A stretch of 64,000 nt of DNA from Patescibacteria group bacterium (lineage in GTDB: Bacteria > Patescibacteriota > Dojkabacteria > J137), in the NCBI GenBank assembly GCA_016861265.1, contig BOLA01000001.1, positions 934,150 to 998,149 of the forward strand. The letters are read 5' to 3'. Position 1 is the stretch's first letter; every line of letters begins with the position of its first letter. The notes under the pieces are model-generated. The model had not been told where the DNA came from, did not search any database, and worked only from the letters and a program-made list of their open reading frames with translations. Shown piece by piece: positions 1,676 through 58,927 of the stretch. The position numbers and the translations under genes are program-made.

Positions 1676-2539
1676 TTATTCACAACCTACAACGGTTAAA
1701 GAGGCATCTCCCGCGTTAATAGATGCATTCGTGACAAAACTTGTGACCGCCGAAGTTGTCATGTATTCAGTCCACCCTGCTTCTATACCGCGTGCAACCA
1801 TTGCAACACTTATCTCCTCAAACCACTTTCCAACTTTTGAATCAACCTGAAGTTGTGTAGAAGTTGAGAAGCTTTGTAATGAGGAAGTAAGCAAAAGTGT
1901 GCCTGCCGTATTAAAGATCGGGAGAATGTAAACATTCCCGAATGTATATATTCCCGGCAGAGTGACCGAATTAATGCGTGGACGGTTCAAGACTGTGCAA
2001 TTGGTATCGACTGCATTTGAAAATGCCTCACCGGTCATTTCACCGTTAAAGGCTTCTACGTCACTTACGCAGTCGAATACCACCATCATCTGCGGTGCAT
2101 TTACTGTATCCACAGAGAACACAAAATCGGTGTCTGCTTCAACAGTATTGACCGAAGATACTGTAAAGGTCTTTGCCACAAAATCAGCTTTGCCCCGATA
2201 CAGTGTAAAACCATAGGTTTCCGAATGTAATGTTACCTGCCCTGTTGCACCACTCAGCGAGAATGCAAGCCACTTACTCAAATATAGGTAGTAGCGAGCA
2301 GAAACTCCTTGACGAGTGGTTGTGAAGAAATTCACCTCGCAACGATTTGGGGTGGGAGTAACATCTCCTTGTGCCTGCAACACGAGCTGTTGCGAAGCAG
2401 CTACTTCTGTTGGCTGAACCTGTTGTGTAAGCGCCGAATCCAGCGTTGGCGATGGTTCGTCCTGTGCACCTACAATAACAAAGGACAACATGAGTGGCAG
2501 AATCGCCAAAAGCACCGATAGCACTACAGCTCTCTTCAT
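1676..2539 (-). CDS. secreted hypothetical protein on a GC-rich islet (~48% GC)
   Basis: 287 aa; N-terminal signal peptide ending …VIVGAQD; composition clearly above the ~30% GC background; overlapping antisense ORFs are typical of GC-rich coding DNA. Confidence 0.6.
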   Translation of the reverse strand: MKRAVVLSVLLAILPLMLSFVIVGAQDEPSPTLDSALTQQVQPTEVAASQQLVLQAQGDVTPTPNRCEVNFFTTTRQGVSARYYLYLSKWLAFSLSGATGQVTLHSETYGFTLYRGKADFVAKTFTVSSVNTVEADTDFVFSVDTVNAPQMMVVFDCVSDVEAFNGEMTGEAFSNAVDTNCTVLNRPRINSVTLPGIYTFGNVYILPIFNTAGTLLLTSSLQSFSTSTQLQVDSKVGKWFEEISVAMVARGIEAGWTEYMTTSAVTSFVTNASINAGDASLTVVGCE

Positions 2540-4784: not shown

Positions 4785-5858
4785 TTACTTAGTCGGTTTC
4801 TCATCCTCCTGTAATGGGTGAAAGTCATGGTGCGATTTTTCAGCAAACTTATCTGAGGCATGAACATACCTAGAAGTTGTTTGTAAGGAAGAGTGACCTA
4901 ATAATCTTTGAATTGCTACGGGACTTGCGCCTTCTTCGGCAATATATGTGGCAAAGCCATGCCTAAGGCTGTGGGCAGATGTTGGAACAATTATTCCAAG
5001 CCTAGTTCTGTATTCTTTAATCTTCATTTGAATGTAATTTTGAGAAAGTCTTATTAGATAGGGATTATTGGTCGCTTTTCGTGTACCCTTGGTTGGAACG
5101 AACATTGCAGGAAACTCATCAGTTCTATCTTTCAAGTATTCTTCTAAGAATTCCTTAGCTCTATGGGTAAGGTATACGAACCTTTGTTTCTTACCTTTAC
5201 CTAGTATATAAATTCTATCGTCTACTACTCTCCCATCTTGAAATTTAATCTGTTCCCGATTCAAATTTACTACCTCAGAAATTCTCATACCTGTGGAAAA
5301 TATCAATTCCAGTATTGCCCTATTTCTTATTTTTACAATTGGATCTTCTTCAAAGTGAGTTGGGCATTCAATTAAATCTACAAGCTCATTAAATTCAGCA
5401 ACCTGCTTTTCTTTCTTCTCAGCCTTAATTAATTTTATTGCAGACGGAGCAATTGGTGATGGTTTATCGAAATCCACCAAAAAAGTTAAATAAGATCTTA
5501 ATGCTGAAAGCATTCTGTTTACACTATTATCTGATAACTGACCCTTGTACATAGCCTTTTTTACCTCCGAAATATTATTTTGTGACTCTTCAATATCGGC
5601 CTGTGTTAACTCCATATTCTCTTTGTATTTATGAAGAATGGGAATATAATTTTGTTCTCGTAGAAATCCTTTATATTCGCTAATTGTCAGCTTATCAATT
5701 TTGCTAAATGGAGTTTCAATGTAGTATAAAAATGCTGAGAAAATTTCTAGGTCTCGACCGTAGTTATCTAATGTTTCCTTTGAATAGTTATTATTCTTAA
5801 GATTAAGTAAATATTCTCTTAGAAAGTCTAATTTGTAAGGGTTAGAAATATCGGTCAT
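4785..5858 (-). CDS. tyrosine site-specific recombinase (XerC/XerD-like integrase family)
   Basis: 357 aa; C-terminal HSLRHGFATYIAEEG…LLGHSSLQTTSRYVH contains the R…HxxR…Y catalytic signature. Confidence 0.8.
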   Translation of the reverse strand: MTDISNPYKLDFLREYLLNLKNNNYSKETLDNYGRDLEIFSAFLYYIETPFSKIDKLTISEYKGFLREQNYIPILHKYKENMELTQADIEESQNNISEVKKAMYKGQLSDNSVNRMLSALRSYLTFLVDFDKPSPIAPSAIKLIKAEKKEKQVAEFNELVDLIECPTHFEEDPIVKIRNRAILELIFSTGMRISEVVNLNREQIKFQDGRVVDDRIYILGKGKKQRFVYLTHRAKEFLEEYLKDRTDEFPAMFVPTKGTRKATNNPYLIRLSQNYIQMKIKEYRTRLGIIVPTSAHSLRHGFATYIAEEGASPVAIQRLLGHSSLQTTSRYVHASDKFAEKSHHDFHPLQEDEKPTK

Positions 5859-7495: not shown

Positions 7496-8839
7496 ATGTT
7501 GAACACACAGTTAAAAACAATATTAGATTTTGAATATAATAGGCAACATAATACGCTAGACTTGATTGCTTCCGAAAACTATACATCCAAAGCGGTAAGG
7601 GAAGCGGTAGGCTCGATATTTATGCACAAATACTCAGAAGGATATCCTGGAGCGCGTTATTACGAAGGTAATGAATATATTGATCAGCTTGAGATATTGG
7701 CAATAAATCTTGTTAAAAAAGTGTTTGAGTTACCACAAGATTGGGGAGCAAATGTACAGCCTCTAGCTGGTTCAAATGCAAATCTAGCTGTTTACAATGC
7801 AATTCTTAACCCTGGAGATAAAATTTTAAGTATGTATTTACCAGATGGAGGGCACTTGAGTCACGGTTGGAGCTACGGAACAAAGGAGGAAAAAGCCAAT
7901 GAGGATGTGAATTCTCCACTATATAGAGGCGGAAGCCGAAAAGTAAATATTGTATCAAAGTTCTTTAATGTTGTTCAGTATAAGACTGATCCCTCAACTT
8001 TTCTAATTGATTACGATAAACTTGAGCAGCTTGCCCTACAGGAGAAACCCAAGTTAATTATTACGGGTGGAACAGCTTATGTAAGGAATATTGATTACAA
8101 AAGGGTTGCTGAGATAGCAAAAAAGGTAGGTGCATATTACTTGGCAGACGTAGCGCATGAGGCAGGTTTAATTGCGGGCAAGGTTTTAGAAAGTCCAATC
8201 GGTATTGCTCATGCAGTTACCTTTACAACACATAAAACACTAAGAGGACCAAAGGGTGCAGTAATTTGTGCTAATCAAGGCATTATTGAGAAAATAAACA
8301 AATCTATTATGCCTGGACTTCAAGGTGGTCCACATAATGGAACGATTGCTGGTATTACGCAATGTTTATTCGAAGCAGATACCGAAGAATTTAGACAATA
8401 CTCGGCTCAAATTTTGGTTAATGCGAAAGTATTAGCTCAGGAGCTGACAGCAAATGGCTTTAATCTTATTACAGGCGGCACCGATAAGCATGCTATCTTA
8501 ATAGATTTAACAAATAAGAGTATTGGGGGAAAATTTGCCTCAATAGCCCTTAATGCAGCCGGGATAGTAACAAATATGAATACTATTCCTTACGAAACTA
8601 AATCCCCAATAAATCCTTCGGGACTTAGACTGGGCACACCATCAGTAACAACAAGAGGCTTTAAAGAAGAACAAATGAAACTAGTTGCAGAGTATATAAA
8701 TAAGGTAATTGATATAGCAAGTGAAGTAGATAATTCAAGTGTAGAGGCCTTTAGGGAATTGGTAAGTTCGAATTCACAAATAAAAGCCATTAAACAAAAG
8801 ATAATGGACTTGTGTACTCAGTTCCCATTGGGTGAATAA
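7496..8839 (+). CDS. glyA: serine hydroxymethyltransferase
   Basis: SENYTS…, THKTLRGPKG PLP-lysine motif; ATG at 7496 with upstream GGAG; the ORF track's earlier start overlaps the previous gene. Confidence 0.9.
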   Translation: MLNTQLKTILDFEYNRQHNTLDLIASENYTSKAVREAVGSIFMHKYSEGYPGARYYEGNEYIDQLEILAINLVKKVFELPQDWGANVQPLAGSNANLAVYNAILNPGDKILSMYLPDGGHLSHGWSYGTKEEKANEDVNSPLYRGGSRKVNIVSKFFNVVQYKTDPSTFLIDYDKLEQLALQEKPKLIITGGTAYVRNIDYKRVAEIAKKVGAYYLADVAHEAGLIAGKVLESPIGIAHAVTFTTHKTLRGPKGAVICANQGIIEKINKSIMPGLQGGPHNGTIAGITQCLFEADTEEFRQYSAQILVNAKVLAQELTANGFNLITGGTDKHAILIDLTNKSIGGKFASIALNAAGIVTNMNTIPYETKSPINPSGLRLGTPSVTTRGFKEEQMKLVAEYINKVIDIASEVDNSSVEAFRELVSSNSQIKAIKQKIMDLCTQFPLGE

Positions 8840-8901
8840 AGCCATTTTTAAGGCTTAAATTAAATGCTATTATATTTTGATTCTATTAGTTAATTATTTT
8901 T

Positions 8902-9609
8902 ATGAAGTTAACATCACTTTCTATAATATTGCCTTGCTACAACGAAGAAGAAAATGTAGAGAAAGTAATCAGGGCAGCTGATGCCGTTTGTCAAAAGGTG
9001 GCCGAAGATTACGAAATCCTAATTATAAACGACGGTAGTAAGGACCGAACTGAAGAAATTGCCAGTGGATTAACAGGTGAATTTCCTAAATTGGTTGTTA
9101 TAACTCAGGCGAATAAAGGATATGGGGGAGCAATTAAGAAAGGGTTTGAAAGCGCTTCAAAAGACTGGGTCTTTTTTACAGATTCAGATTTGCAATTTGA
9201 CTTGAACGAATTAGAATCTTTTATACCCTACTCCAGTGAATATAATTTTATATTTGGTTATAGAATAAAAAGAGCCGATAAATTTCATAGAATTTTAATA
9301 GCTAAAATGCTTAAGGTTTGGAATCGAATTCTACTAGGATTCCCATTGTATATTAAGGACATAGACTGTGCCTTTAAACTAATGAAAAGAGAAGACTTCT
9401 TGAGCATTTTTCCATTAGTTGTAGATGGAGGTCTTATAAACACAGAATTCATTTTGAAGATTCATAGAAAGGGTTATAAGATTAAACAAATCGGGGTTCA
9501 TCATTATCCGAGAGTTGCCGGTAATCCTACTGGATCTAACGTAGGCGTAATTATGAAAGCGGTAAGGGAGACTTTTAAACTTCGAAAAATGCTTGCTTCT
9601 CAAAAATAA
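8902..9609 (+). CDS. GT2-family polyprenol-phosphate glycosyltransferase (DPM-synthase/GtrB/CsbB-like)
   Basis: 235 aa; LSIILPCYNEE…INDGSKD…TDSD motifs of GT-A fold GT2. Confidence 0.8.
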   Translation: MKLTSLSIILPCYNEEENVEKVIRAADAVCQKVAEDYEILIINDGSKDRTEEIASGLTGEFPKLVVITQANKGYGGAIKKGFESASKDWVFFTDSDLQFDLNELESFIPYSSEYNFIFGYRIKRADKFHRILIAKMLKVWNRILLGFPLYIKDIDCAFKLMKREDFLSIFPLVVDGGLINTEFILKIHRKGYKIKQIGVHHYPRVAGNPTGSNVGVIMKAVRETFKLRKMLASQK

Positions 9610-9641
9610 TATATATTCGCTAAATATTCGATAATTGCATA

Positions 9642-9667
9642 AGTGCCTGGACAAGGCACTTTTTTGT
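9642..9667 (+). terminator. Rho-independent terminator (AGTGCCT-GGACA-AGGCACT + TTTTTT)
   Basis: Hairpin plus U-tract seen downstream of the GT2 gene. Confidence 0.7.
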
Positions 9668-9741
9668 TTGTACTGGTTGTAAAAAATAAATTGAACATGT
9701 ATAATGTAGTAGTTATATATAAATTTTAATATATACAACCT

Positions 9742-10356
9742 ATGATAAATATAATCTCAAAACTTAATATTTTTGTTGGTGTACTGTTGATAACAATAAC
9801 TCCGACATACTTCTATGTTTCGGCTCAACTGCAGCCTACTATTATTACGTCTAATTCATTGCCAGTAACTCAAACAGAAAGGGAAAGCAATATTCTAGAC
9901 GGTAATTTAGGTATTAGGGGTAATCTTGGCGGTGCTAATACGCTTAAGGCTATTAAGGTAACTGGAGATGGGCATGTAAAAATTGAATCGATCGGTATCG
10001 ATGCCAAAATTTACGAGGGTGCAGATTCCTCGGCTCTTGAGAAAGGGATTTGGAGAATGCCTGAGCATGGTACTCCAGACAATCAAGTTAGTGATCAACC
10101 TGTGGTATTGGCAGGACATAGATGGGGGCAAAATGACTTTACTTATGAGTACAGATCTAAGAACCTATTCTTAAATCTTCCTAGTTTAAGTAGAGGTGAT
10201 GTAATTGAAGTTACTTGGAATGGAGTTACTTATAAGTATGCAGTTACAGATGTTCAAAAGAACAATTATGTAGAAAAGTTGTCCGACTTGATCCTTATTA
10301 CTTGTGTTGATTACGTGTCAACAACTAGATACTTTGTATACGCTGAAAGAATCTAA
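9742..10356 (+). CDS. sortase-family transpeptidase
   Basis: 204 aa; N-terminal TM anchor; catalytic His in VVLAGHRWG, Cys in LILITCVDY (TLXTC), Arg near the C-terminus. Confidence 0.75.
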   Translation: MINIISKLNIFVGVLLITITPTYFYVSAQLQPTIITSNSLPVTQTERESNILDGNLGIRGNLGGANTLKAIKVTGDGHVKIESIGIDAKIYEGADSSALEKGIWRMPEHGTPDNQVSDQPVVLAGHRWGQNDFTYEYRSKNLFLNLPSLSRGDVIEVTWNGVTYKYAVTDVQKNNYVEKLSDLILITCVDYVSTTRYFVYAERI

Positions 10357-10421
10357 TAGATATTGACTTTTTTATATACTCAAGATATAATAAATATATA
10401 ACTTTTAATATAACTATATAT

Positions 10422-10712
10422 ATGAAGAAATTGCTAAGTGTTTTAACACTAACAGTTATAGCATTTTCAAGTGTTAGTCCTTTAGTATTAAAGGCTGATG
10501 CTGGTGCACAATCTTGTGTTCCTGGAACTGGAGTTAACGGAGTGGCTTGTACACCTTGTTACCCTGGACCTTATAACATTTGTGCACCTCATACCGGAAT
10601 CATTTTCAATGATTCAAATATTAACGAAGGAGCTGTATTTTTAAGTGCAGCAGCAGTAGTTGCTGGAGCAGCATTCGTTATTAACGGTAAGAATTTGAAG
10701 AAGAATGCTTAA
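10422..10712 (+). CDS. small Cys-rich secreted protein with C-terminal hydrophobic segment and basic tail (candidate sortase substrate lacking LPXTG)
   Basis: 96 aa; signal peptide; 6 Cys; C-terminal …NINEGAVFLSAAAVVAGAAFVINGKNLKKNA resembles a sorting-signal architecture. Confidence 0.55.
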   Translation: MKKLLSVLTLTVIAFSSVSPLVLKADAGAQSCVPGTGVNGVACTPCYPGPYNICAPHTGIIFNDSNINEGAVFLSAAAVVAGAAFVINGKNLKKNA

Positions 10713-10785
10713 TTGATTTAGTCCCCTGTTTCCCTGAATTGTTACTATAAATAAAAACATTCAGGGATCAGGAATTTTGAAGAGG

Positions 10786-10822
10786 TTTTTTGACACTGGA
10801 AAATGTTGACAATATAACGAAA
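10786..10822 (+). promoter_or_regulatory. sigma70-like promoter (TTGACA-17nt-TATAAC)
   Basis: Seen in sequence; lies in the AT-rich stretch between the Cys-rich protein gene and the GC-rich islet. Confidence 0.35.
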
Positions 10823-11125
10823 GAGGTATATACTGGATATATATTAATATTGATTGAGTGGGCTAACCCATTAATGAGTATTAATATACTCGATCTTTGA
10901 CAACTGTATTTTACAGTTGTAGAAAATTCTTAATTAATTGTATGGCGCAAGTCTGCAATCTTTAGGAAGATTCTCTCAACTATTGCTTTAATAGTCCAAG
11001 TACTCGCTATGGGTAAATAGTTAATAAGGTTAGCTGTTTACCCGTAGTGGAGTACATCCTTAAGGGTACTCGACGCGGTAGGGCATTTGCCCGACAAATC
11101 TAGTTCGACTCTATGGAGGACAGTC

Positions 11126-12220
11126 ATGTTCAACAACAATCGTACGGCTCGTATCGTGATGCTGCTGGTTCTCGTAATCGGCAGTGTCTTCACCAGTGTG
11201 ATGAGCGTCTTCGCGCAGGATGTTGCTCCGGTTTACCCGGTCAACGACCCCGCGAAGTGCGACTTCACGTTCGCGTACAACGGCAGCGGCGGCTGGAATG
11301 TCCAGCGCTACCTTCAGGACAACGGCGATGGCATCGTTCTCGTTACGACGCAAGAAGGTTGGGGGGAAGTGACTTCGGACACTCCCTTCACCGTCTTCGT
11401 CGGCACGTGGGAAGACGCTTCGCAGTCTGTCGTGAATCAGGGCGCAGGCGTTCTCGCAGTGGCTGAAGAGAACCGTTTCGCGTATCGCTTCGGCGAGGAT
11501 GCCAAGCTGGCAGTCGGTCAGGCGCTCGTTATGGTGGCAAACTGCACGCAAGGCGTGGCAGTCGATGCCCCGGCAGCGTTCCCGCCCAACGACGCGGTTT
11601 GCGATCCCACGTTCTGGCGCGAAGGTTCGGACAATCTCGGACGCAAGTTCGTTGACGGCTCTCGCTTGCTGCATTTCGCGGCGGGCGAAGTTGACGACGC
11701 GGCTGTTGGTTCGAACGTCCCGTTCCTCGTATTTCGCGGCATGATCGATGGCACGGGCAACCTCGGCTCTCCGGTTCTGGAATACAGCTACTCCCCCGAC
11801 GGCACGACCTTCAAGTACGTGATCTCGGCGGCGAATAAGCTGGCGCAGAACGAAGGACTGATGGTCGTCTGGCCCTGCCTCAGCGGCGCTGAACACGACG
11901 GGTTTATGACCCACATCACCACCGTCCCGAATGTGGACTGGTGCGGCGCTCACGTAATGGCGGCGGGTTCGACTGAAACCGTCCCTGCCAACTGCGTGGT
12001 CTCCGGCGATGTCAAGGTCAACGGCACGGCGCTGTACGACAACGTGGAAGACACGGGGTTGGTGGTTGCCATTGGTAGCAACCCGGTTGAAATCTACGCT
12101 GAGTGGGGCGCGAGCATTTGGCCCGCGGGCACTGTCCCGCAGACCGCCCACGATGCGTTGGTTCTGACCGGCTGCGCCGATGCGCTCGGTTGCCGCGTTG
12201 TTACGGTGAGTAACCAGTAG
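11126..12220 (+). CDS. secreted hypothetical protein on a ~60% GC islet
   Basis: Start ATG 11126 preceded by GGAGGACAGTC; signal peptide …SVFAQD; composition ~2x the background GC; full-length antisense ORF (11111..12241) is a GC artefact. Confidence 0.6.
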   Translation: MFNNNRTARIVMLLVLVIGSVFTSVMSVFAQDVAPVYPVNDPAKCDFTFAYNGSGGWNVQRYLQDNGDGIVLVTTQEGWGEVTSDTPFTVFVGTWEDASQSVVNQGAGVLAVAEENRFAYRFGEDAKLAVGQALVMVANCTQGVAVDAPAAFPPNDAVCDPTFWREGSDNLGRKFVDGSRLLHFAAGEVDDAAVGSNVPFLVFRGMIDGTGNLGSPVLEYSYSPDGTTFKYVISAANKLAQNEGLMVVWPCLSGAEHDGFMTHITTVPNVDWCGAHVMAAGSTETVPANCVVSGDVKVNGTALYDNVEDTGLVVAIGSNPVEIYAEWGASIWPAGTVPQTAHDALVLTGCADALGCRVVTVSNQ

Positions 12221-12264
12221 CAGCGATCCGAACCTGACCAAAGCAATAGGCGAGAAAAGAGTAA

Positions 12265-12289
12265 TCCGGACACCCTTGTGGTGTCCGGA
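12265..12289 (+). terminator. hairpin TCCGGACAC-loop-GTGTCCGGA downstream of the islet gene
   Basis: Seen in sequence. Confidence 0.4.
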
Positions 12290-12350
12290 CTCGCTTTAAG
12301 TAGATTTCTAAAAGTCTTTTTAAAGTGAGTTAAATTATTTAAAAAACACT

Positions 12351-12626
12351 ATGGAAACTATCAAGATAAGTCTTAGCGAAACAGGTCTAAGAGTAATTGC
12401 TATAGTAGCTGTTTGTGCATCCATAATAGCTTCCACAGTGCTTTTTGTTAATTCAAGAAGTGCTGATAGAAAAGCGGAAATTATTGCAGATTGTTTTAAT
12501 GTAGCTTCGTATAGAGCAACAAACTCTGAGAATAAATCAGAAGTTAATGAACCTGTACTAAGATTCTTTAAAACATGTATGGATATAAATGGTTACGGAA
12601 GTAACTACACATTCTTAAATGAATAA
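12351..12626 (+). CDS. small membrane protein, hypothetical
   Basis: 91 aa, one TM helix; followed by a strong terminator. Confidence 0.45.
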   Translation: METIKISLSETGLRVIAIVAVCASIIASTVLFVNSRSADRKAEIIADCFNVASYRATNSENKSEVNEPVLRFFKTCMDINGYGSNYTFLNE

Positions 12627-12649
12627 GAGTTGATTTTTGATCAAAGGTT

Positions 12650-12673
12650 ACCCCGCTCCAGCGGGGTTTTTTA
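12650..12673 (+). terminator. Rho-independent terminator (ACCCCGC-TCCA-GCGGGGT + TTTTTT)
   Basis: Seen in sequence. Confidence 0.75.
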
Positions 12674-12730
12674 ATAACTTCAGGTAAGTAGTAAATTTAC
12701 CTGAGCTTATTAGTCTTTGAAAGGACTCAT

Positions 12731-12829
12731 CATGAAAAAGCTCGAGAATGTAATGAGAACCTTGGCAATTGTCAGTTTGGCAGTTGTTTCTGCTGCCATT
12801 GGCATTCTATGGGTGATTGTTACACACTA
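12731..12829 (+). CDS. tiny hydrophobic peptide (32 aa) MKKLENVMRTLAIVSLAVVSAAIGILWVIVTH
   Basis: Short ORF immediately followed by a long perfect palindrome (12834..12863). Confidence 0.2.
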
Positions 12830-12876
12830 AACTTTAGGGCGGAAGCATCTTCTGCTTCCGCCCTAAAAACGCTAGA

Positions 12877-15800
12877 ATGTTAAAGATGAAAAAGAAATCA
12901 CCTTTATTCAAATTGATAAATCCTATTTGGAGTCGTAAATTTATAATTATCCTCTTTGTTCTATGGATTCTTATTTGCATAGCAAATTTTAGCCCGGACA
13001 CATTTTTAACCGGCTGGGATAATCTTCACCCTGAGTTTAACTACTCAATGAATTTAAAGAGGCTACTAACAAGTTCCTGGGCTGAGTATCAAGGTCTAGG
13101 CGCACCCGGTGCCCACTCACATGCTGCAGAAATTCCTAGAATGTTTATAGTGGGTATTTTGAACTTAATTTTTGAAACTAATCTAGTTAGGTACATTTTT
13201 ACCTTTATAACTCTGATTATTGGAGTAATAGGTATTTATTATCTGGTCAACAATATCTTCTTAAAAAGAAAAGAAAAGAAATTAAGAGAGTTTTCGGCAT
13301 TTGCAGCAGCACTTTTTTACATGCTTAATGTGGGTACTGTTCAGCACTTTCAAGCACCCTTTGAAATGTTCAATGTTCAATATGCATTACTGCCCTGGCT
13401 TATAGTACTTGCAATTAAATTTCTAGAGACAAAAAAATACAAATATTTACTATATTTTTCTGTAGTGACTTTTTTTGCTGCACCAATGGCTTATGCAGTT
13501 ATGCTATGGATTGCCTATTTTGGAGGTCTCACAATATTCTTGCTTCTAAACCTTGTATTTCAACGAAAAAAGGATTTAATAAAACCAAGTATTTTTCTTT
13601 TATCCGTCACTATTCTAGTAAATCTATTCTGGTTAGTACCAAACTTATATTTTGTATTCAATCATAGCAATTACGTACCAACTGCAAAAACGAATCTTAT
13701 TTTTTCAGAAGAAGCGTTTTTAACGAATCAGAAATATGGAAACCTGGTAGATATTTTCTTGAACAAGGGGTTCTTGTTTGACTGGCAAATTAGAAATCCA
13801 AATTACACTTTTGAACCTATTATGGGTAAATGGGATAGTCACATTGATAATCCGATTGTATTATCAATAGCCTTACTAAGCTTTGCACTTATTGTTGTGG
13901 GCATACTCTACTCAATTTATAGAAAACAGAAGTATTTAATTCCATTGATTGGTGTACTTGTATTTGCAGTTATCGTGATTATGGGTACTAATCCACCATT
14001 AGGAGGGGTTTGGGAAGTGTTAGTTGCTAAGATATCGGTGCTGCAAGAAGCAATTAGGTTCCCATTTACCAAATTCTCTATTTTATTTATATTTACTCAA
14101 ACGGCCTTTCTAGGCTTGGGTACCTATTCTGCAGCAAGATTAATTACAAAGAGAATTCACTTTCAATATGGTTCAATTTTTGCATTGCTATTTTTACTTC
14201 TAATATCTGTAGTCTATTCTCTTCCTACATTCCAAGGTAACTTTATTAATAAATCCCTTAGAATTGATATACCAAACGATTATTTTGAATTATTTGATTA
14301 TTTTAAAGATCAGAATAAGGCAGAAAGAATTGCTAACTTTCCTGTAAATACTCTTTTCGGGTGGTTTTATACCGATTGGGGGTATCAAGGATCGGGGTTT
14401 CTTTGGTATGGAATAGAACAGCCAATCTTAGATAGAGATTTTGATAGATGGTACACAACATTAGAAGATTATTACGACAGCGTAAGTCAAGCTGTATATA
14501 CAAACGATGCAAATTCATTAAAAGATGTTCTTAAAAAGTATGCAATTGATTGGATAATAATTGATGAACATGTTGTATCTTCCAGCGAAGATAACAACTA
14601 TTCTTTAAATCCTGATCTCGCATCGTCAGAAATGGCCTATAAGGAAACAAAGGCTTTGCTTGAAAAAATTCCTGGAGTCGAGCAAAAAGCGGTGTTTGGA
14701 AAAATTTATGTCTATAAAATATCGGGCCTTGATACAGATAATTCTTATGTAGATGTTCTAAATAACGATGCAGAAGGTCAGCCAATAGAAAGTAAGAATG
14801 CTTTTATCGAGGATAATTTTGGAAGAAAAAGTGAGGAAACCTACTTTGAGAAAATCTCAAACGATAATGTTAATTATATAAATAATGTATATACGCTTAG
14901 CAACGAACCAGGTAACTTACATCTTCCTCAAATTTATGATTCCGAGAAGAGTATTCCAGTAAGAATTGCAGCTCGAAAGAACAGCTCTTCCGTTAATATT
15001 AGACTAACCTATCAGATTCCTACAATATACGTAAATGACCAAAGCACTGTAAATGTAACAAAAGTAAGAAACCTTAATTTCGATATTGCAAATCAGTCTT
15101 CCAATTATTACCTAGATATTAATAATCAACAGTTACTCCTTGAGGATATAGATAATGCGTGGAAGATATACGGTTTTATGGATGTAGCATTAGATAAGGA
15201 TTTAGTAGCAAACTTATATAATATTGATGATGGAGAAAACATTACATCAAGACTAGATCTGGAAAAAGCACAAATTAATAATTGTTCTGGTTCTGCCATA
15301 GCTAAAAGCTCTTCAGTTTCTTTTGTTAATGATGTTCTTAACTTTAGAAGCACTGGTGAAAACATTTGTGTCGAATTTAAAATTAGCACCTTGAATACTG
15401 TTAATAGTTTGTATCGACTTGAGATGGAATATAAAAGTAATCAGGGAGTTATCGGGGACGCATGCATAAAATTTGACGCAGGTTGTGTTAATACAAAAGA
15501 ATTTAGGAGCGATTATCTGCCTACTTTCTGGTATAAATTTAATACTTTTGCAAAAGATGAAGACTCCAATAATTTTAGTACTGCGTTAGTATTCAATAAC
15601 TCATCTCCAGAAAATACTGCATCCATAGGTTATAGAAACGTAAAATTATATAGGTACGAATTGGATGATCAGGTGGTAATAAAGCTAGAAGATATCAAGA
15701 ACGATCTACGTTTTGCTAATACCGATATACCTATAAAACCGATAAATACCAAACTTACCTTCAAATTTATTCTACCGACTAGTAAAATTTATAATTTTGA

Positions 15801-16734
15801 TTACACTGCTCTTCAGCAAATTTTATCTTTAACGGCAAAGGATTGTAAACCATACGTAGATTCAATAGAGCTTGATAGAAGTCTTGATTCTGTAAATAGA
15901 CAAATTGATTTTAAATCTATAGATGGATTTAACTGTGATAATCTAAATTTGTACAATATTAATCTAAAGAATGGTTTCTTAATTAATATTGAAGGGGAAA
16001 ACAAGTCAGGTCCAGGATTAGTGTTAAATGTAAGCGACTTTTACTATAAGAAGGTATATTACACGAATAGACTTCCTCAGAATTCTAATTTTAGCGAATA
16101 TTTAACTATCCCTAATTTAATTGATTCCGCTTCTAATGGTTTGAATATTTTTATTAATAATCAATCAGTTGGTAACAAAGAAACTATAAACTCCATTAAG
16201 AATATAACTGTAAGCCCAATAATTTATAGTTGGCTTTCAGGCATAGAATATCAGTCTGCTCCCCTATTTAGCTCAGATAATAGCGTGATTAGTGTAGATA
16301 AACTTACTACGACAAATTACAAAATTGAGTTGAATCCATCAAGTTCTGATAGAATACTTAAATTCAATCAGAGCTACGAAGCTAACTGGCTAGCCTACGA
16401 CGATAAAGGTAATCTGCTTAATCGGCTAGGAACAGTAAATAGTAATACAGAAAAAGCGGAATGGAACAACTATTGGATTCTTCCGGCTGGAGTGTCGGGA
16501 GTCTTTATTGAATATAGAACTGAGACTTACCAATATTTAGCGTACGTGATAGTCGCATTCTTATTTGTGGTTCTTACCGTTGCATCTGCATGGCAAAGTA
16601 ATAGGTATATTATTTTTGTTACCCAAATTAAAAAAGCATACAAGAAACAAAGAAGAAAACACATGCTTTTTGTCGAAAGAAATATTGAGCCGAAACTAGA
16701 CCGATTCAAGAAGTTTAATAAGAAAGATCTCTAA
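12877..16734 (+). CDS. giant (1285 aa) membrane protein: N-terminal ~12-TM GT-C/YfhO-like domain, large extracytoplasmic domain, C-terminal TM anchor
   Basis: Uninterrupted ORF in an AT-rich genome; topology inferred from hydrophobic segments; family assignment is an inference. Confidence 0.6.
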   Translation: MLKMKKKSPLFKLINPIWSRKFIIILFVLWILICIANFSPDTFLTGWDNLHPEFNYSMNLKRLLTSSWAEYQGLGAPGAHSHAAEIPRMFIVGILNLIFETNLVRYIFTFITLIIGVIGIYYLVNNIFLKRKEKKLREFSAFAAALFYMLNVGTVQHFQAPFEMFNVQYALLPWLIVLAIKFLETKKYKYLLYFSVVTFFAAPMAYAVMLWIAYFGGLTIFLLLNLVFQRKKDLIKPSIFLLSVTILVNLFWLVPNLYFVFNHSNYVPTAKTNLIFSEEAFLTNQKYGNLVDIFLNKGFLFDWQIRNPNYTFEPIMGKWDSHIDNPIVLSIALLSFALIVVGILYSIYRKQKYLIPLIGVLVFAVIVIMGTNPPLGGVWEVLVAKISVLQEAIRFPFTKFSILFIFTQTAFLGLGTYSAARLITKRIHFQYGSIFALLFLLLISVVYSLPTFQGNFINKSLRIDIPNDYFELFDYFKDQNKAERIANFPVNTLFGWFYTDWGYQGSGFLWYGIEQPILDRDFDRWYTTLEDYYDSVSQAVYTNDANSLKDVLKKYAIDWIIIDEHVVSSSEDNNYSLNPDLASSEMAYKETKALLEKIPGVEQKAVFGKIYVYKISGLDTDNSYVDVLNNDAEGQPIESKNAFIEDNFGRKSEETYFEKISNDNVNYINNVYTLSNEPGNLHLPQIYDSEKSIPVRIAARKNSSSVNIRLTYQIPTIYVNDQSTVNVTKVRNLNFDIANQSSNYYLDINNQQLLLEDIDNAWKIYGFMDVALDKDLVANLYNIDDGENITSRLDLEKAQINNCSGSAIAKSSSVSFVNDVLNFRSTGENICVEFKISTLNTVNSLYRLEMEYKSNQGVIGDACIKFDAGCVNTKEFRSDYLPTFWYKFNTFAKDEDSNNFSTALVFNNSSPENTASIGYRNVKLYRYELDDQVVIKLEDIKNDLRFANTDIPIKPINTKLTFKFILPTSKIYNFDYTALQQILSLTAKDCKPYVDSIELDRSLDSVNRQIDFKSIDGFNCDNLNLYNINLKNGFLINIEGENKSGPGLVLNVSDFYYKKVYYTNRLPQNSNFSEYLTIPNLIDSASNGLNIFINNQSVGNKETINSIKNITVSPIIYSWLSGIEYQSAPLFSSDNSVISVDKLTTTNYKIELNPSSSDRILKFNQSYEANWLAYDDKGNLLNRLGTVNSNTEKAEWNNYWILPAGVSGVFIEYRTETYQYLAYVIVAFLFVVLTVASAWQSNRYIIFVTQIKKAYKKQRRKHMLFVERNIEPKLDRFKKFNKKDL

Positions 16735-16804
16735 ATTCTGCATTGCAAGTTCTATATATTAGATATATAATTGGTTCGGCCATTAATACTTGAGGAGGTG
16801 TTAA

Positions 16805-17011
16805 ATGGGAGCTAGTAGAAATACCAGAGAAATCGACTGGAACAAGGTCTGCCTAAAGATAGTGCGTGGCCAAATTATTAATGAGCGCAAAAGAAAAATG
16901 GTTCATTTGGCCGCATTCTTAGGTGGAATTGCTCTTGCTGCGATTATCGGTTTTCTGGCAACTGAGGGTATGAACTTTTTAAGAAATATCCTCGGTTTCA
17001 AGGGTTTTTAA
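16805..17011 (+). CDS. small membrane protein, hypothetical
   Basis: 68 aa; strong SD GAGGAGGTG; followed by a terminator hairpin. Confidence 0.35.
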   Translation: MGASRNTREIDWNKVCLKIVRGQIINERKRKMVHLAAFLGGIALAAIIGFLATEGMNFLRNILGFKGF

Positions 17012-17017
17012 CCCAAA

Positions 17018-17048
17018 ATAGGGGATGGCAAATTTTTCCATCCCCTAT
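17018..17048 (+). terminator. hairpin ATAGGGGATGG-loop-CCATCCCCTAT
   Basis: Seen in sequence. Confidence 0.55.
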
Positions 17049-17152
17049 TGCATTTCTATTGAGAATTAAATAAAAAAAATGTATAATTCAACGCTAGAAA
17101 TCGTTAAGTGCATTAAGGGAAAGGTAGATTAACGATGATGGTAGAAAGTGTC

Positions 17153-17224
17153 GGCCCTATCGTCTAACGGTTAGGACATCAGATTTTCAATCTGGTAATC
17201 GGAGTTCGATTCTCCGTGGGGTCA
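17153..17224 (+). tRNA. tRNA-Glu (anticodon UUC), no encoded CCA
   Basis: Manual fold: acceptor GGCCCTA/TGGGGTC with two G-U pairs, D-arm, anticodon stem TCAGA/TCTGG with loop TTTTCAA, T-arm CGGAG-TTCGATT-CTCCG. Confidence 0.8.
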
Positions 17225-17323
17225 TTAAAAGGGCATCTCGAAAGAGGTGCCTTTTTTATGATTATTTGCGAATTTACTATTTTGTTCATATAATACAGCA
17301 ACTTATTTTCTAAGACTAAATAT

Positions 17324-18132: not shown

Positions 18133-18420
18133 CTAGTTTCTCTGATCCGAACTTCTTCCTCTCTGATTACTTTCACTATCTCTTCCACCTCTGTCGGAAG
18201 AAGATCTTTCCGATCTTTCAGAGTTTGAAGAATGGTTCTCCGACCCGCTTCTTTGATTAGAGTCGGATTCTCTATCTCTAGAAGATGCTGCACTTCGGCT
18301 TGAGCCTTCGTTTGAATCGCTTTCGCTTCCATGTGCTTTCCCACCCGCTGACTGAATCTTTCGCTTGGTTTTTTCATCCATATTAGGGGAACCTAACCCT
18401 CTTTTGCTTGTATCTGACAT
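18133..18420 (-). CDS. KGG-repeat general stress protein (YciG/Con-10-like), Ser/Arg/Asp-rich
   Basis: 95 aa; SAGGKAHGSE resembles the KGG-motif stress proteins; the alternative overlapping frame 18126..18377 is less likely. Confidence 0.5.
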   Translation of the reverse strand: MSDTSKRGLGSPNMDEKTKRKIQSAGGKAHGSESDSNEGSSRSAASSRDRESDSNQRSGSENHSSNSERSERSSSDRGGRDSESNQRGRSSDQRN

Positions 18421-26934: not shown

Positions 26935-27016
26935 TAATACTTTTGGCACACTTGCATTTTCTAAAGTTTGGGTAGAATATAAAATTATTCCATCAATAGT
27001 TTATAAGGAGTCTAAG

Positions 27017-27319
27017 ATGACTACCTTTGGTGCTGTAGAATATAAGGGTGATCCTTGGAAAGAAGGTTCTTCACCTTTTGTTAATGCAGCAACACAGGTT
27101 CAAATAACTGAGCAGACTGATCATGCGCTCTATCTGCTCTACTGGAATCTAGACATAGGTGGAACCCCTATCCCACAAGATGTTAAGGATCTTGCTCTAG
27201 TGGAATGGGAAAGAAGATATCCATTTAGATGCTCACAGACAGATAGCTGTGAGTGGTGGGCAGGATGGATGAATGATGTTGTGAACCGCAGGTACGGTGT
27301 TTATACTAAGTCTGCATAG
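27017..27319 (+). CDS. small hypothetical protein (islet gene A), paralogous to gene B
   Basis: Start MTTFGAVEYKG with SD AAGGAG; shared motif EWERRYPF vs gene B EEWRKRYPEG; ~45% GC; own terminator (27329..27353). Confidence 0.5.
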   Translation: MTTFGAVEYKGDPWKEGSSPFVNAATQVQITEQTDHALYLLYWNLDIGGTPIPQDVKDLALVEWERRYPFRCSQTDSCEWWAGWMNDVVNRRYGVYTKSA

Positions 27320-27424
27320 TAGCTACAGAAGCGGAAGACAGAGTCTTCCGCTTAAATTACTGCAATTAATTTCGGAATTCCAACAATTTTTGTTAACATT
27401 ACTTACTTTACCTGAGGAGGTAAT

Positions 27425-27694
27425 ATGTTTCCCTTAATCACTGTCGTAGGCAGGGAAGGCAGTCAAGGTGCAGTGCTGAATGACTTTAGAACTAGAGTCC
27501 CCATTGCACAACAAAATAACTTCGGTCTTTTCGCAATTATGTTTAGCTGCGAAATTGACGGAGTTGCCGTTACATGCGAAGTTCAAAGGGCTGCAGCTGA
27601 GGAATGGAGAAAACGCTACCCAGAAGGTGTATCGAAGGATGCAAAGTCGTGGGAATTTTCTTCAGACCAAAAAGCTAATGAACTGTTGGATTAA
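27425..27694 (+). CDS. small hypothetical protein (islet gene B)
   Basis: 89 aa; SD GAGGAGG; own terminator (27704..27727). Confidence 0.5.
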   Translation: MFPLITVVGREGSQGAVLNDFRTRVPIAQQNNFGLFAIMFSCEIDGVAVTCEVQRAAAEEWRKRYPEGVSKDAKSWEFSSDQKANELLD

Positions 27695-27773
27695 GCATGT
27701 TTTAAAGAGGGCTTCCTCGCCCTCTTTAAGTATATTCTCATGATATAATTATATAGTACTGTGTGGAGGTGAT

Positions 27774-28103
27774 ATGAAGGCCTATCATCCAGATGCAGAA
27801 TTTCCCGTAATAGGGAACTGGCAACAGGCAACTACTCAAGAGTTGCTTGATGCATTGAATCATTCCAGACCGTTCGTAATCGAGGGCGTACTAGAGGACT
27901 TCGATGGAGAGAACACTGGACACGAAACATTCTGGGCTTATAGGAGTGAGGGTTCGAATAAAATCGAGTACATCGAAAGTGCCAGCATTGCTTTTGATCA
28001 GGCGATGATGTCTCCTTACGAGTCGACTCGATACGACTTCGAGAACTACTTCGGTTATGTTACGGAGGAAGGTGTACTTTTTCTCTACTACATAACAGCA
28101 TAA
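27774..28103 (+). CDS. small acidic hypothetical protein (islet gene C)
   Basis: 109 aa; SD GGAGGTG; own terminator (28109..28134). Confidence 0.5.
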   Translation: MKAYHPDAEFPVIGNWQQATTQELLDALNHSRPFVIEGVLEDFDGENTGHETFWAYRSEGSNKIEYIESASIAFDQAMMSPYESTRYDFENYFGYVTEEGVLFLYYITA

Positions 28104-55686: not shown

Positions 55687-55730
55687 GCCTGTTATAATTA
55701 GTTAAGCCAAGTTAAGGAGGAATAGAACAA

Positions 55731-56141
55731 ATGAGTCTGCTGACAGTTAATTACAGCGGTTCTGCTATGGCTCAAGCGCTTCCCAAGCCAGTGGGTCATG
55801 GCAATCCTCGGATAATGCTTTCCGAGTTTGGTAGTGAGGTGGAAACCGAGCTGATCAAGGCGCTGGGAAATCAGACCATTCTTCCTGTGGGCATTATAGG
55901 TACTAGTGGCGCACAGCCGTTTGGTGTAAATGCCCGCAATCGTGGAAGTGTTGAATTGCTTTTGGAACTGATTTCCCCTGTGGAGCTAGATTCCGAGGGT
56001 GTTCATGAACTTGCCGTTATCATGAGGCGTGCTGTATTGGACCTATTCAATACGCCACGTTATCAGGGCGGCAGTTATGAGCAGCTCGAGGTTCTGTCTA
56101 TGGTGGTTGTTCACAGGGGTGTATTAGTTTCTAAAGGCTGA
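55731..56141 (+). CDS. hypothetical protein on a GC-rich islet (~50% GC)
   Basis: 136 aa; extended -10 TGTTATAAT and SD AAGGAGG upstream; hairpin GCGGGAACTGC-AAGC-AGTTCCCGC at 56157..56182. Confidence 0.45.
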   Translation: MSLLTVNYSGSAMAQALPKPVGHGNPRIMLSEFGSEVETELIKALGNQTILPVGIIGTSGAQPFGVNARNRGSVELLLELISPVELDSEGVHELAVIMRRAVLDLFNTPRYQGGSYEQLEVLSMVVVHRGVLVSKG

Positions 56142-56182
56142 CAACCAACGAGCTTGGTGCGGGAACTGCAAGCAGTTCCCGC

Positions 56183-56700
56183 ATAAGTAACTACATATAG
56201 TTTTAATTGATTCCTGAAATTGTTTTTGTTGAAATTTGTATAGAAAGTTCGTGGAGTACTTTCTGTCAGGTGCATGGGTAATGCACTTTGAAATTCGGCT
56301 ACCGGCCTTATTCGACATAAGTACTCCATAGGTATAAAGCTGTATCTTCCCCTCTTCGGAGGAAAGGCAAATCAATTAAGGCATCAGGGGGCTTTCCCTT
56401 ACATCCAGATTCGCCGAGCGCAGACTCTTTTGCTTTATACATCAGCATAGTGACCGAAGTCATTCTATGCAAGGCAGCATCGGGCTTACACAAAGTATTC
56501 ACCCAGTAAGAGGCTTTGTCCTGCCTTCTTCCGGTAAGTTGTGTATGAGGTGTATTGTTAGCCACACATTTATCTCAAGCGCCGCACAATGCTCCGTTTT
56601 AAAGTTGCTCCCCAAACCTGTGGGGACCGTACTCTAGTCCTTATCTCCAGAATTTAATCATTGGAGCCCTTAAAGGGGTCTGCAACTTCGCGACTAAAGT
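56183..56700. other. ~520-nt GC-enriched non-coding region with multiple hairpins (candidate large structured RNA or decayed gene)
   Basis: Only short overlapping ORFs on the minus strand; UUCG-capped stem CCTCTTCGGAGG and other local helices; no family identified. Confidence 0.25.
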
Positions 56701-56902: not shown

Positions 56903-57412
56903 ATGAATAAAATTAAAAACATATTACTTAGTGCGGGAATTATTGCATTTACCGGGCTATTCTTTACGTTAAATATTAGTGCCCAATCAAGTGCAAGTGA
57001 ACAAATTCAACAGGCTCGTTGTAGTCGAATTACTGCAAGAATTGATGCTCAAATAGAATCATATAATTTAACTAAAGATAAGTACATTAATATTTATACG
57101 AGTGTGGGTGATGCCGTAAGTATTAGATTAGACAATCTAGAAAACAAAGGAGTTGATGTTGCACTATTAAGAACAGATCTGCAGGCGTTAAGTAGTTTAA
57201 ACGCAGAACTGGGAAGTTCATACGATCAATTTATAGCGGAATTAACTAAAGCTAAAGAATTTGGTTGCGGTACAAGTGAGAGTGAATTTACCCAACAATT
57301 GCAATTAGCAAGGCAACAGCTTTTAGTTGTAAAGCAAAAGGCACTTGATGTTAAAGAATATATATTCAATACTCTAAGACCGGATCTTAAGAATTTAAAA
57401 ACTACTATTTAA
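56903..57412 (+). CDS. secreted hypothetical protein
   Basis: 169 aa; signal peptide MNKIKNILLSAGIIAFTGLFFTLNISAQ. Confidence 0.5.
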   Translation: MNKIKNILLSAGIIAFTGLFFTLNISAQSSASEQIQQARCSRITARIDAQIESYNLTKDKYINIYTSVGDAVSIRLDNLENKGVDVALLRTDLQALSSLNAELGSSYDQFIAELTKAKEFGCGTSESEFTQQLQLARQQLLVVKQKALDVKEYIFNTLRPDLKNLKTTI

Positions 57413-58495: not shown

Positions 58496-58927
58496 ATGCC
58501 AGTAGTAAGTGGTTTGTGGGATCAAGGACGAGTGTTCGCAGCACTCACTTGTAATCCCGAAGAGCAGCATACACAAGCCGAGGCACTAATGCTTGAGTTG
58601 TTTGAGGCAGCGCAAGCTGTTCTAGTCAAGCAACTTGAGGTTGTGCCGACGGGTATTGTGTTCTTCTGCGAGAAGCAGCCGATGCTCACCATAAATTCGT
58701 TCCCGCTGGAATTCGCCATTCGCAGCACTAAAAGCAAGGAATGGGGAAACAGGGATGATCAGCAAGAGATTATCCGAAAAGTCCTCAAGCGAATGCGGAA
58801 GGTGCTTAGGGCGTGGACTGAAGCCAAAAGGGCTAACTTTAGCGGTTGGCAGATTGGCATGGAGCTCAGCTTTATCGAGCTGTTCGCTACCAGCGAGGCG
58901 GTGGAAGAAGAAGCTGCTACGGAATAA
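58496..58927 (+). CDS. hypothetical protein on a GC-rich islet (~52% GC)
   Basis: 143 aa; upstream TGTGATATAAT extended -10 and SD AAGGAGG. Confidence 0.45.
   Translation: MPVVSGLWDQGRVFAALTCNPEEQHTQAEALMLELFEAAQAVLVKQLEVVPTGIVFFCEKQPMLTINSFPLEFAIRSTKSKEWGNRDDQQEIIRKVLKRMRKVLRAWTEAKRANFSGWQIGMELSFIELFATSEAVEEEAATE

Follow-up and report, generated by a model that had tools for sequence, protein, structure and literature searches.

A GC-rich gene for a secreted protein is a long-standing resident of an AT-rich patescibacterial chromosome

In a stretch of 64,000 nucleotides from a Patescibacteria group bacterium (Dojkabacteria; assembly GCA_016861265.1, contig BOLA01000001.1, positions 934,150 to 998,149 of the forward strand; here referred to as the window) we analyzed the open reading frame (ORF) 11126..12220, which encodes a putative secreted protein and differs strongly from its surroundings in the content of guanine and cytosine (GC). 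The gene was found to be a compositional outlier without amelioration. It is resident at its locus and co-diverging with the chromosome, and its GC-rich synonymous composition is stationary among lineages whose synonymous sites are saturated with changes. We favour, with moderate confidence, the overall picture of an old resident gene, possibly of foreign origin, in which selection preserves the synonymous composition. A preliminary description of this stretch had interpreted the same contrast as the sign of a gene gained very recently by horizontal transfer from a high-GC donor, possibly shared with the gene 1676..2539, or as a chimeric assembly.

Composition and codon usage

The GC content of ORF 11126..12220 was 0.608 in total and 0.627, 0.452 and 0.745 at the first, second and third codon positions (GC1, GC2 and GC3), respectively. 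The ten adjoining genes ranged from 0.31 to 0.38 in GC and from 0.19 to 0.31 in GC3. In the remaining 1095-nt windows of the 64 kb the mean GC was 0.338 (standard deviation 0.032, maximum 0.458), which places the ORF at z = 8.5. The contrast between a gene of about 60% GC and surroundings of about 30%, as reported in the preliminary description, is therefore real on precise computation and far above chance expectation.

The codon preferences of the gene were the opposite of those of the host genes. Arginine is encoded by CGC or CGT and AGA is absent, whereas the host genes carried 89 AGA and not a single CGC codon. For isoleucine ATC is used with zero ATA, and for leucine CTG and CTC with zero TTA. 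Glutamate, however, keeps the preference of the host: the ratio of GAA to GAG was 12:3, 10:3 and 7:2 in the gene of three lineages and 150:59 in the host genes. As GTT is still common as well, the GC pressure on the gene is not uniform. The amino acid composition is of the high-GC type, with a fraction of 0.29 for glycine, alanine, arginine and proline (GARP) and of 0.20 for phenylalanine, tyrosine, methionine, isoleucine, asparagine and lysine (FYMINK).

Of the sharp composition boundaries initially described only the one on the 3' side was found, where the GC content falls from 0.52 to 0.18 at position 12301. The 5' edge is a ramp of about 150 nt that runs through the leader of the gene, with GC values of 0.36, 0.40, 0.52, 0.46, 0.52 and 0.60 in consecutive segments of 50 nt.

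Orthologues at the same locus

The order of the neighbouring genes was identical in the window and in the contigs L001, L004, L010 and L024. It comprises folD, a gene for a secreted protein, htrA, Bax1-I and a xerC-like gene, followed by genes for a membrane protein, serine hydroxymethyltransferase (SHMT), a family 2 glycosyltransferase (GT2) and a sortase, the small gene p96 and finally the GC-rich gene. The latter occupied the matching syntenic position in L001, L004, L010-L014 and L024, and patchy presence was not seen. An exact look-up of p96 placed it directly upstream of the GC-rich gene in every complete contig, while two contigs ended at or inside the gene.

Besides the window two further deep lineages were found. 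The contig L001, derived from another sample, carried in the same position an orthologue of 58% amino acid identity with a GC content of 0.596, the GC3 of its background being 0.15-0.21. The contigs L006 and L007 represent the third lineage; here the orthologue shared 55% amino acid identity and was preceded by an equivalent AT-rich leader. A close relative of the window strain, L024, was about 97% identical in the flanks. The GC3 values of these four copies agreed within 0.01 (window 0.745, L024 0.736, L001 0.736, L006 0.735).

Among the three deep lineages the number of synonymous substitutions per site (dS) in the gene was about 1.4 in pairwise comparison and thus saturated. The ratio of nonsynonymous to synonymous changes (dN/dS) was about 0.25, and all eight cysteines were conserved; the protein is under purifying selection. 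At conserved residues 101, 94 and 100 identical codons were observed, when 92, 88 and 92 were expected from the codon bias alone. Since these numbers are barely above expectation, the synonymous sites have been randomised between the lineages. Even so, the columns that vary synonymously had a GC3 of 0.66.

At the lower divergence of L024 the dS of the gene was 0.181 and that of neighbouring genes 0.135, 0.140 and 0.188. The gene is therefore resident and co-diverges with the chromosome. Strong-to-weak and weak-to-strong differences were balanced (17:14). Hypermutation was rejected because the dS was not raised over that of the neighbours. A target of a diversity-generating retroelement was rejected on the same grounds and because the 64 kb contained no second copy of the gene, although no search was aimed at a reverse transcriptase.

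Assuming that GC-to-AT changes are about three times as fast as changes in the opposite direction, each lineage, with 0.7 or more substitutions per site, would be expected to have dropped to a GC3 of about 0.42 or below. The observed GC-rich synonymous usage (GC3 of about 0.74 compared with about 0.2-0.3) is stationary and cannot be explained by neutral AT-biased mutation. A non-neutral force specific to the coding region is therefore required.

Maintenance of the GC content

In the picture that we favour, the gene would be a long-standing resident at a fixed locus in a small clade of AT-rich bacteria with small genomes. It may have entered this clade in ancient times from a lineage of higher GC content and have replaced or enlarged a native member of the C-terminal domain (CTD) gene family described below, which normally lies beside a gene for a large membrane protein. 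The product would be a Sec-secreted acidic protein of three predicted disulfide-bonded, beta-rich domains and would probably act at the cell surface together with the membrane protein of 1285 amino acids (aa) encoded downstream.

With recent transfer and hypermutation or a diversity-generating retroelement excluded, biased gene conversion contradicted and repeated import unlikely (see above and the following section), a gene-specific non-neutral force is left. Selection at the level of the mRNA or of translation would be the most likely force of this kind. The gene appears to be a self-contained expression unit with a near-consensus promoter, a structured 5' untranslated region (UTR) of 285 nt, a GGAGG motif, a GC-rich body with few A/U runs and an invariant 3' hairpin. 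Such a design would fit a long-lived mRNA that is heavily or specially translated. We name mRNA stability or codon-specific translation as the particular target of selection only tentatively. Compared with synonymous shuffles, the predicted fold of the coding sequence (CDS) was more stable in two of the three lineages (z = -2.6, -2.6 and -0.6). Runs of at least four A/U numbered 11, with 14-15 expected, in the three lineages (P = 0.13, 0.16 and 0.06).

Several points weigh against this picture. The signals from CDS folding and A/U runs agree in direction but are weak and would fail a strict correction for multiple testing, and the claim of selection at the mRNA is reached through the elimination of alternatives. 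Of the tRNA genes of the genome, only two are covered by the window. Only three deep lineages are known, one of them from contigs of 1.5 kb alone. In addition, the locus recombines, so that its alleles need not share the history of the flanks. Formally, an unsampled pool of high-GC donors or a GC-biased repair or mutation process specific to this gene might produce the same pattern.

A bolder version of selection on the GC content would regard the gene as a 'codon island', in which a single gene has its GC-rich synonymous usage actively maintained as an adaptive trait. In an AT-rich, ribosome-poor symbiont genome the opposite codons and mRNA composition might give an unusually stable transcript. 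Alternatively, they might uncouple translation from the bulk tRNA pool, for example by letting it continue when starvation outside a host leaves the most used tRNAs uncharged. The conserved 285-nt leader would then be the matching control element. We consider this version possible but doubtful. If true, it would be a natural demonstration, at the scale of a gene, of strong selection on synonymous GC in bacteria.

Recombination and alternative explanations

Recombination was evident in the flanks of the gene. A block of 800 nt that reaches up to the ATG of the GC-rich gene (Table 1) was 92-100% identical between the window and the distant L001, whereas the other flanks shared 50-80% identity. 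Within this block the dS of p96 was 0.044, compared with 1.6 to saturation for the neighbouring genes. As the leader of the third lineage (L006/L007) was just about 80% identical, the near-identity of window and L001 points to a recent exchange and not to constraint alone. On a smaller scale, the window and L004 were 100% identical across most of 12 kb, with 79% identity in a patch over the signal peptide (11126-11225), the remainder of the GC-rich CDS being unchanged, and 81-96% around the end of the SHMT gene and the GT2 gene (8425-9725). These stretches look like small recombination patches inside one population.

Such a mosaic would be in agreement with repeated replacement of the CDS. Here a GC-rich pool that has escaped sampling, in a host organism or a mobile element, would supply the alleles, with the leader and the 3' hairpin as homology arms, and every lineage would carry a newly arrived allele. 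The near-identical upstream block in distant lineages, the signal-peptide patch that differs between otherwise identical strains, a nearly invariant 3' block and the many assemblies that break exactly at the flanks of the CDS all fit this explanation. The homology arms, however, are AT-rich sequences specific to the clade, which would not be expected in a foreign donor. Furthermore, no full-length homologue was found outside the clade by a word-indexed search of 5.8 billion clusters or by a HMMER profile search of 1.84 billion representatives, among which the full-length family formed a single cluster at 50% identity. Scans of metagenomes for the protein and for the 3' hairpin gave no matches, and viral contigs contained no relatives of the protein. 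The divergence of the gene also tracks that of its neighbours in L024, the sole unsaturated depth. Altogether, we regard repeated replacement as unlikely.

A recombination hotspot could also raise the equilibrium GC without selection on the gene, through GC-biased gene conversion or some other neutral bias that acts locally. Frequent recombination can be demonstrated here, and biased gene conversion is said to have been proposed for bacteria by Lassalle and colleagues in 2015. Nevertheless, the recombined p96 block has the lowest GC3 of the region (0.19), which speaks against an origin of the GC in gene conversion. Moreover, the rise in GC coincides with the transcribed and coding unit, the response differs between codon families (GAA is retained and GTT frequent), and a shift from 0.25 to 0.75 is far above reported effects. 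This explanation is therefore very improbable.

Still less probability remains for the very recent acquisition from a high-GC donor, in which amelioration would not yet have begun. The extreme contrast in GC and codon usage, the high-GC type of the amino acid composition and the GC-richer contexts of the closest CTD relatives would be expected from such an event. Yet none of the relatives found lacked the gene at this locus, not even the lineages with saturated dS, in which a GC3 of about 0.74 is kept, and in L024 its dS of 0.18 equals the 0.14-0.19 of the neighbours. In all lineages the gene is joined exactly to a conserved promoter and leader that are AT-rich and look native. No donor homologue is known, and the donor lineage sought through homology searches was not found, full-length homologues being confined to the clade. 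There was no integrase-bounded island, no flanking direct repeat and no tRNA beside the gene, the nearest lying 5 kb away at 17153; no part of the gene was repeated elsewhere in the 64 kb. The xerC-like gene (4785..5858) also belongs to the shared gene order and shows 90% conservation in L001. A phage origin was rejected, as viral relatives were lacking, the 3' element was absent from viral contigs and one 19-mer of the leader in a viral contig was due to chance. What remains of the preliminary interpretation is a foreign high-GC origin as such, which is still plausible from the GARP-rich composition and the contexts of the CTD relatives; its recency and the identification of a donor failed.

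A chimera of a GC-rich fragment of another organism with an AT-rich contig would explain the abrupt 3' composition step and the many contigs of 1.2 kb that contain the CDS alone, but it has practically no probability left. At least seven assemblies (L002, L004, L010-L014, L024), which differ in sample and assembler, run across both junctions and carry the same genes on either side. The diverged L001 orthologue shows the same junctions, and the short contigs stop within the same leader and 3' UTR. The contig L004 spans both junctions with a length of 126 kb, and the identical protein was present on an NCBI contig of 1,114,243 bp and in Logan and ENA assemblies of many samples.

In total, fourteen assemblies gave contigs of less than 2 kb with the GC-rich gene. 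Those that were fetched (L015-L019) were about 1.2 kb in size and had the GC-rich CDS only. Branching of the assembly graph or GC-dependent coverage is the likely cause of these contigs; an origin from transcripts would also be conceivable. The start points of several of them differed by no more than 1 nt and lay 72-73 nt before the ATG, beside a single nucleotide difference between strains (A/C) in the leader. L015 ran into a different sequence 55 nt upstream of the gene.

Promoter and untranslated regions

The features of the locus are listed in Table 1. Both hexamers of the predicted promoter were invariant in all five aligned lineages. The first hairpin of the leader is located almost at the predicted 5' end. 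For the 5' UTR a minimum free energy of -102.5 kcal/mol was calculated (z = -7.8 against 200 shuffles). The consensus fold of four sequences contained 96 pairs with 97.7% of the cells paired. Seven compensatory pairs were found, compared with 0-2 in slid controls and with none of 500 shuffles reaching 7; with only four sequences this covariation lends support but is no proof. Apart from a microRNA model by chance, Rfam gave no match to the leader, either at the gathering score or at E <= 10, and no second copy was present in the window. The leader is a previously undescribed structured 5' RNA.

Table 1. Positions of the features at the GC-rich locus (in the window unless another contig is named)
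Feature	Position	Strand	Remarks
Block exchanged with L001 (p96 promoter, p96, intergenic promoter and leader)	10325..11125	+	800 nt; L001 9200-10000
p96	10422..10712	+	small secreted Cys-rich protein with C-terminal anchor; GC3 0.19
Sigma-70-type promoter, TTGACA-17 nt-TATACT	10806..10834	+	predicted; 11 of 12 consensus positions
5' UTR	10841..11125	+	about 285 nt, predicted from promoter; conserved, highly structured (fold energy, covariation)
GC-rich CDS, whole	11126..12220	+	364 aa; acidic mature protein, 8 Cys
Signal peptide (aa 1-30), ...SVFA/QD	11126..11215	+	read from the sequence by inspection
D1 (aa 35-145, Cys45/Cys140) and D2 (aa 146-256, Cys159/Cys251)	11228..11893	+	homologous to each other, about 110 aa each
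C-terminal domain	11909..12217	+	about 95 aa, four Cys; unnamed extracellular family; motif C..GE..VPAGC.V.GDV.VNG..LYDN...TGLVV...APWGA.V...GCG..GC
3' UTR block	12241..12305	+	65 nt; 10-bp GC-rich stem 12265..12289 inside 5-bp outer stem 12250..12254/12290..12294
Multi-pass membrane protein	12877..16734	+	1285 aa; likely functional partner by conserved gene neighbourhood
Pair of CTD-family gene and membrane-protein gene	window 11126-16734; L025 6001-9364; L028 968-4377; L029 136-3517		

The structured leader given previously as GC-rich and as extending from 10990 to 11090 was confirmed in its structure, but it is longer (about 10841..11125) and mostly AT-rich, with about 50% GC reached only in the last 90 nt or so. 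The strong Shine-Dalgarno sequence GGAGG was present at 11115..11119, 6 nt ahead of the ATG. The downstream hairpin (12250..12294) is real as well. In the alignment of five lineages the 3' block around it varied at one position only, a G/C difference in L001, and the hairpin is probably a terminator and/or a 3' stabiliser.

A pairing of the 5' UTR with the 3' UTR (CTATTGCTT with AAGCAATAG) was considered and rejected, because 194 of 300 shuffled 3' UTRs gave an equal or better duplex energy. The leader also contains an ORF of eight codons (10875..10901; ATG AGT ATT AAT ATA CTC GAT CTT TGA; ATGAGTATT...) that was open in all lineages. Its stop codon and one sense codon varied, and no obvious ribosome-binding site was found upstream of it. 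On the opposite strand of the gene an antisense ORF of 376 aa (11111..12241), codon-aligned with the sense frame, was rejected as a candidate. It is open because the GC-rich gene lacks TTA, CTA and TCA codons, and in L001 the longest antisense ORF had only 100 aa.

Protein domains and the neighbouring membrane protein

The two N-terminal domains D1 and D2 shared 30% identity (E = 2e-7), and each is bracketed by a pair of cysteines. A profile search with this region (residues 1-260) found no match outside the clade. The C-terminal 95 aa matched the profile of an unnamed family with E values down to 4e-27; used alone as a word-index query, this domain returned zero candidates. The mature protein carried 39 aspartate and glutamate residues and 14 lysine and arginine residues. 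Sequence and fold searches of the PDB gave no significant match, and no homology to known S-layer or cell-wall-anchoring domains was found. The full-length AlphaFold2 model was too poor for use, with a predicted local distance difference test (pLDDT) score of 52.

In the window an ORF of 91 aa (12351..12626) separates the GC-rich gene from the gene of the membrane protein. Within the 91-aa ORF a weak match to the leader of ribosomal protein S15 (12401-12506, + strand; 25.9 bits with a gathering score of 39.5, E = 0.068) was judged to be due to chance. The membrane protein shared 40% identity over 638 aa with a protein of 909 aa on the contig L025 (E = 5e-145). On this contig as well as on L028 and L029, all AT-rich with 37-39% GC, a CTD-family gene lies directly upstream of the gene for a membrane protein of 909-949 aa. 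A GT2 gene follows the membrane protein in L025 and is also found near the gene of the window, and a CLIPPER-repeat protein is encoded upstream of the pair in L025 and L028. The core proteins of the pair matched no Pfam family, and p96 no protein family. The conserved pairing suggests a role of the GC-rich protein in the cell envelope.

The CTD relatives in L025, L028 and L029 are single-domain, lipoprotein-like proteins of 182-194 aa, with an ordinary GC3 of 0.23-0.32. Homologues on L003, L008 and L009 were GC-richer than their flanks; a family-wide elevation of GC was rejected, since these syntenic relatives do not show it. The pairing is native to AT-rich genomes of this kind, and the GC-richness is peculiar to the clade of the window. 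The nearest CTD relatives are parts of proteins rich in GARP residues; for two of these the contig has a GC content of about 50% and the gene itself a GC3 of 0.78. An old displacement or extension of a native CTD gene by a homologue of higher GC content is plausible, though unproven.

Downstream of the membrane-protein gene L004 carried a serine recombinase, a DNA methylase and a NgoPII-type restriction enzyme (L004 16054-20998), which probably form a strain-specific mobile restriction-modification island. At the corresponding place (16735-17320) the window has a tRNA-Glu (17153-17224) and guanylate kinase.

Other regions of raised GC

In the preliminary description the gene 1676..2539 had been taken for a second GC-rich gene with the same cleavage-site triplet (AQD) and possibly the same donor. 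It lies on the minus strand and is not comparably GC-rich, with a GC content of only 0.457 and a GC3 of 0.41 (0.745 in ORF 11126..12220). Its product, a secreted protein of 287 aa without a family match, evolves very fast: the L001 orthologue, whose GC content is raised as well (0.437), shared 28% amino acid identity. The alignment of the two window proteins gave no sequence similarity (E = 0.3), and neither homology nor a common leader of the two genes was found. The 5' region of 1676..2539 is not conserved; it contains a near-perfect hairpin of 20 nt (2576-2620). The triplet AQD is indeed present in both proteins. However, cleavage between A and Q also closes the signal peptides of genes of ordinary GC content, namely p96 ('AGAQS') and 56903..57412 ('ISAQS'), and thus seems to be the normal signal-peptidase site of the organism and not the signature of a donor.

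Four further patches with GC contents of 0.42-0.55 were observed at 27000-28100, 55700-56150, 58496-58927 and 18133-18420 (the last on the minus strand). They contain small ORFs of 109, 136, 143 and 95 aa with a GC3 of 0.33-0.56 and without a match in Pfam or Rfam. A region of about 470 nt and about 47% GC (56230-56700) had no convincing ORF and many stem-forming segments, and may be a divergent structured RNA. It contains GGAGGAAAGGC, which we take to resemble the P4 region of RNase P; Rfam gave no match at E <= 0.1.

Comparison with known systems

Compositional outliers are routinely taken as recent horizontal transfers, and the framework of amelioration, by which acquired genes and islands are detected through atypical composition, reportedly goes back to Lawrence and Ochman. 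With an acquired gene or island the GC-rich gene shares the strongly atypical GC and codon usage, amino acids of the 'foreign' type and nearest domain relatives of higher GC content. It differs in its consistent presence, in the lack of mobility signatures and of an identifiable donor, and in showing no amelioration at saturated synonymous divergence in at least three lineages. Thus, of five marks of a recent island only the composition was found, while the other four (patchiness, a donor, mobility, and little divergence with a drift towards the host) were absent. The present case shows that the usual interpretation of outliers can fail.

The members of the unnamed CTD family are similar to the GC-rich gene with respect to the profile match, the 40% identical membrane protein downstream and the GT2 gene nearby. 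The protein of the window, however, adds two clade-specific domains, and its gene a long leader and GC-rich coding. The structured leader RNA, an extracellular domain family without a solved structural relative and the pairing with a large membrane protein have not been described previously. This pairing was found in small AT-rich genomes, probably of Patescibacteria, whose surface biology is largely unknown.

In the layout of its expression unit the gene resembles those of abundant surface and S-layer proteins. Long stabilising 5' UTRs are found in these genes, and the mRNAs of E. coli ompA and B. subtilis aprE are stabilised by 5' hairpins. The strong promoter, the long structured 5' UTR with its 5'-proximal hairpin, the strong Shine-Dalgarno sequence, the Sec signal peptide recognised by inspection, the acidic secreted product and the stable 3' hairpin are the points of likeness. 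By contrast, there is no relation to S-layer or outer-membrane proteins in sequence or fold, and the many cysteines would be unusual for an S-layer. A wholesale shift in codon composition is not known for such genes.

Selection on genic G+C or codon choice independent of mutation bias is said to have been reported by Hildebrand and by Hershberg and Petrov in 2010 and by Raghavan, Kelkar and Ochman in 2012, and selective tRNA charging by Elf and colleagues in 2003. A synonymous composition far from the mutational equilibrium and a non-uniform response of the codon families are common to those cases and to the present one. The known effects, however, are genome-wide and small, whereas here a single gene lies stably about 50 GC3 points away from its neighbours. 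In the open-access literature we found no description of one gene that keeps a GC3 excess of 50 points through saturating divergence, which is weak evidence. If selection is responsible, the gene would offer a rare natural test of selection on GC or codons independent of mutation bias, and the contrast is large enough for measurement in metagenomic population data.

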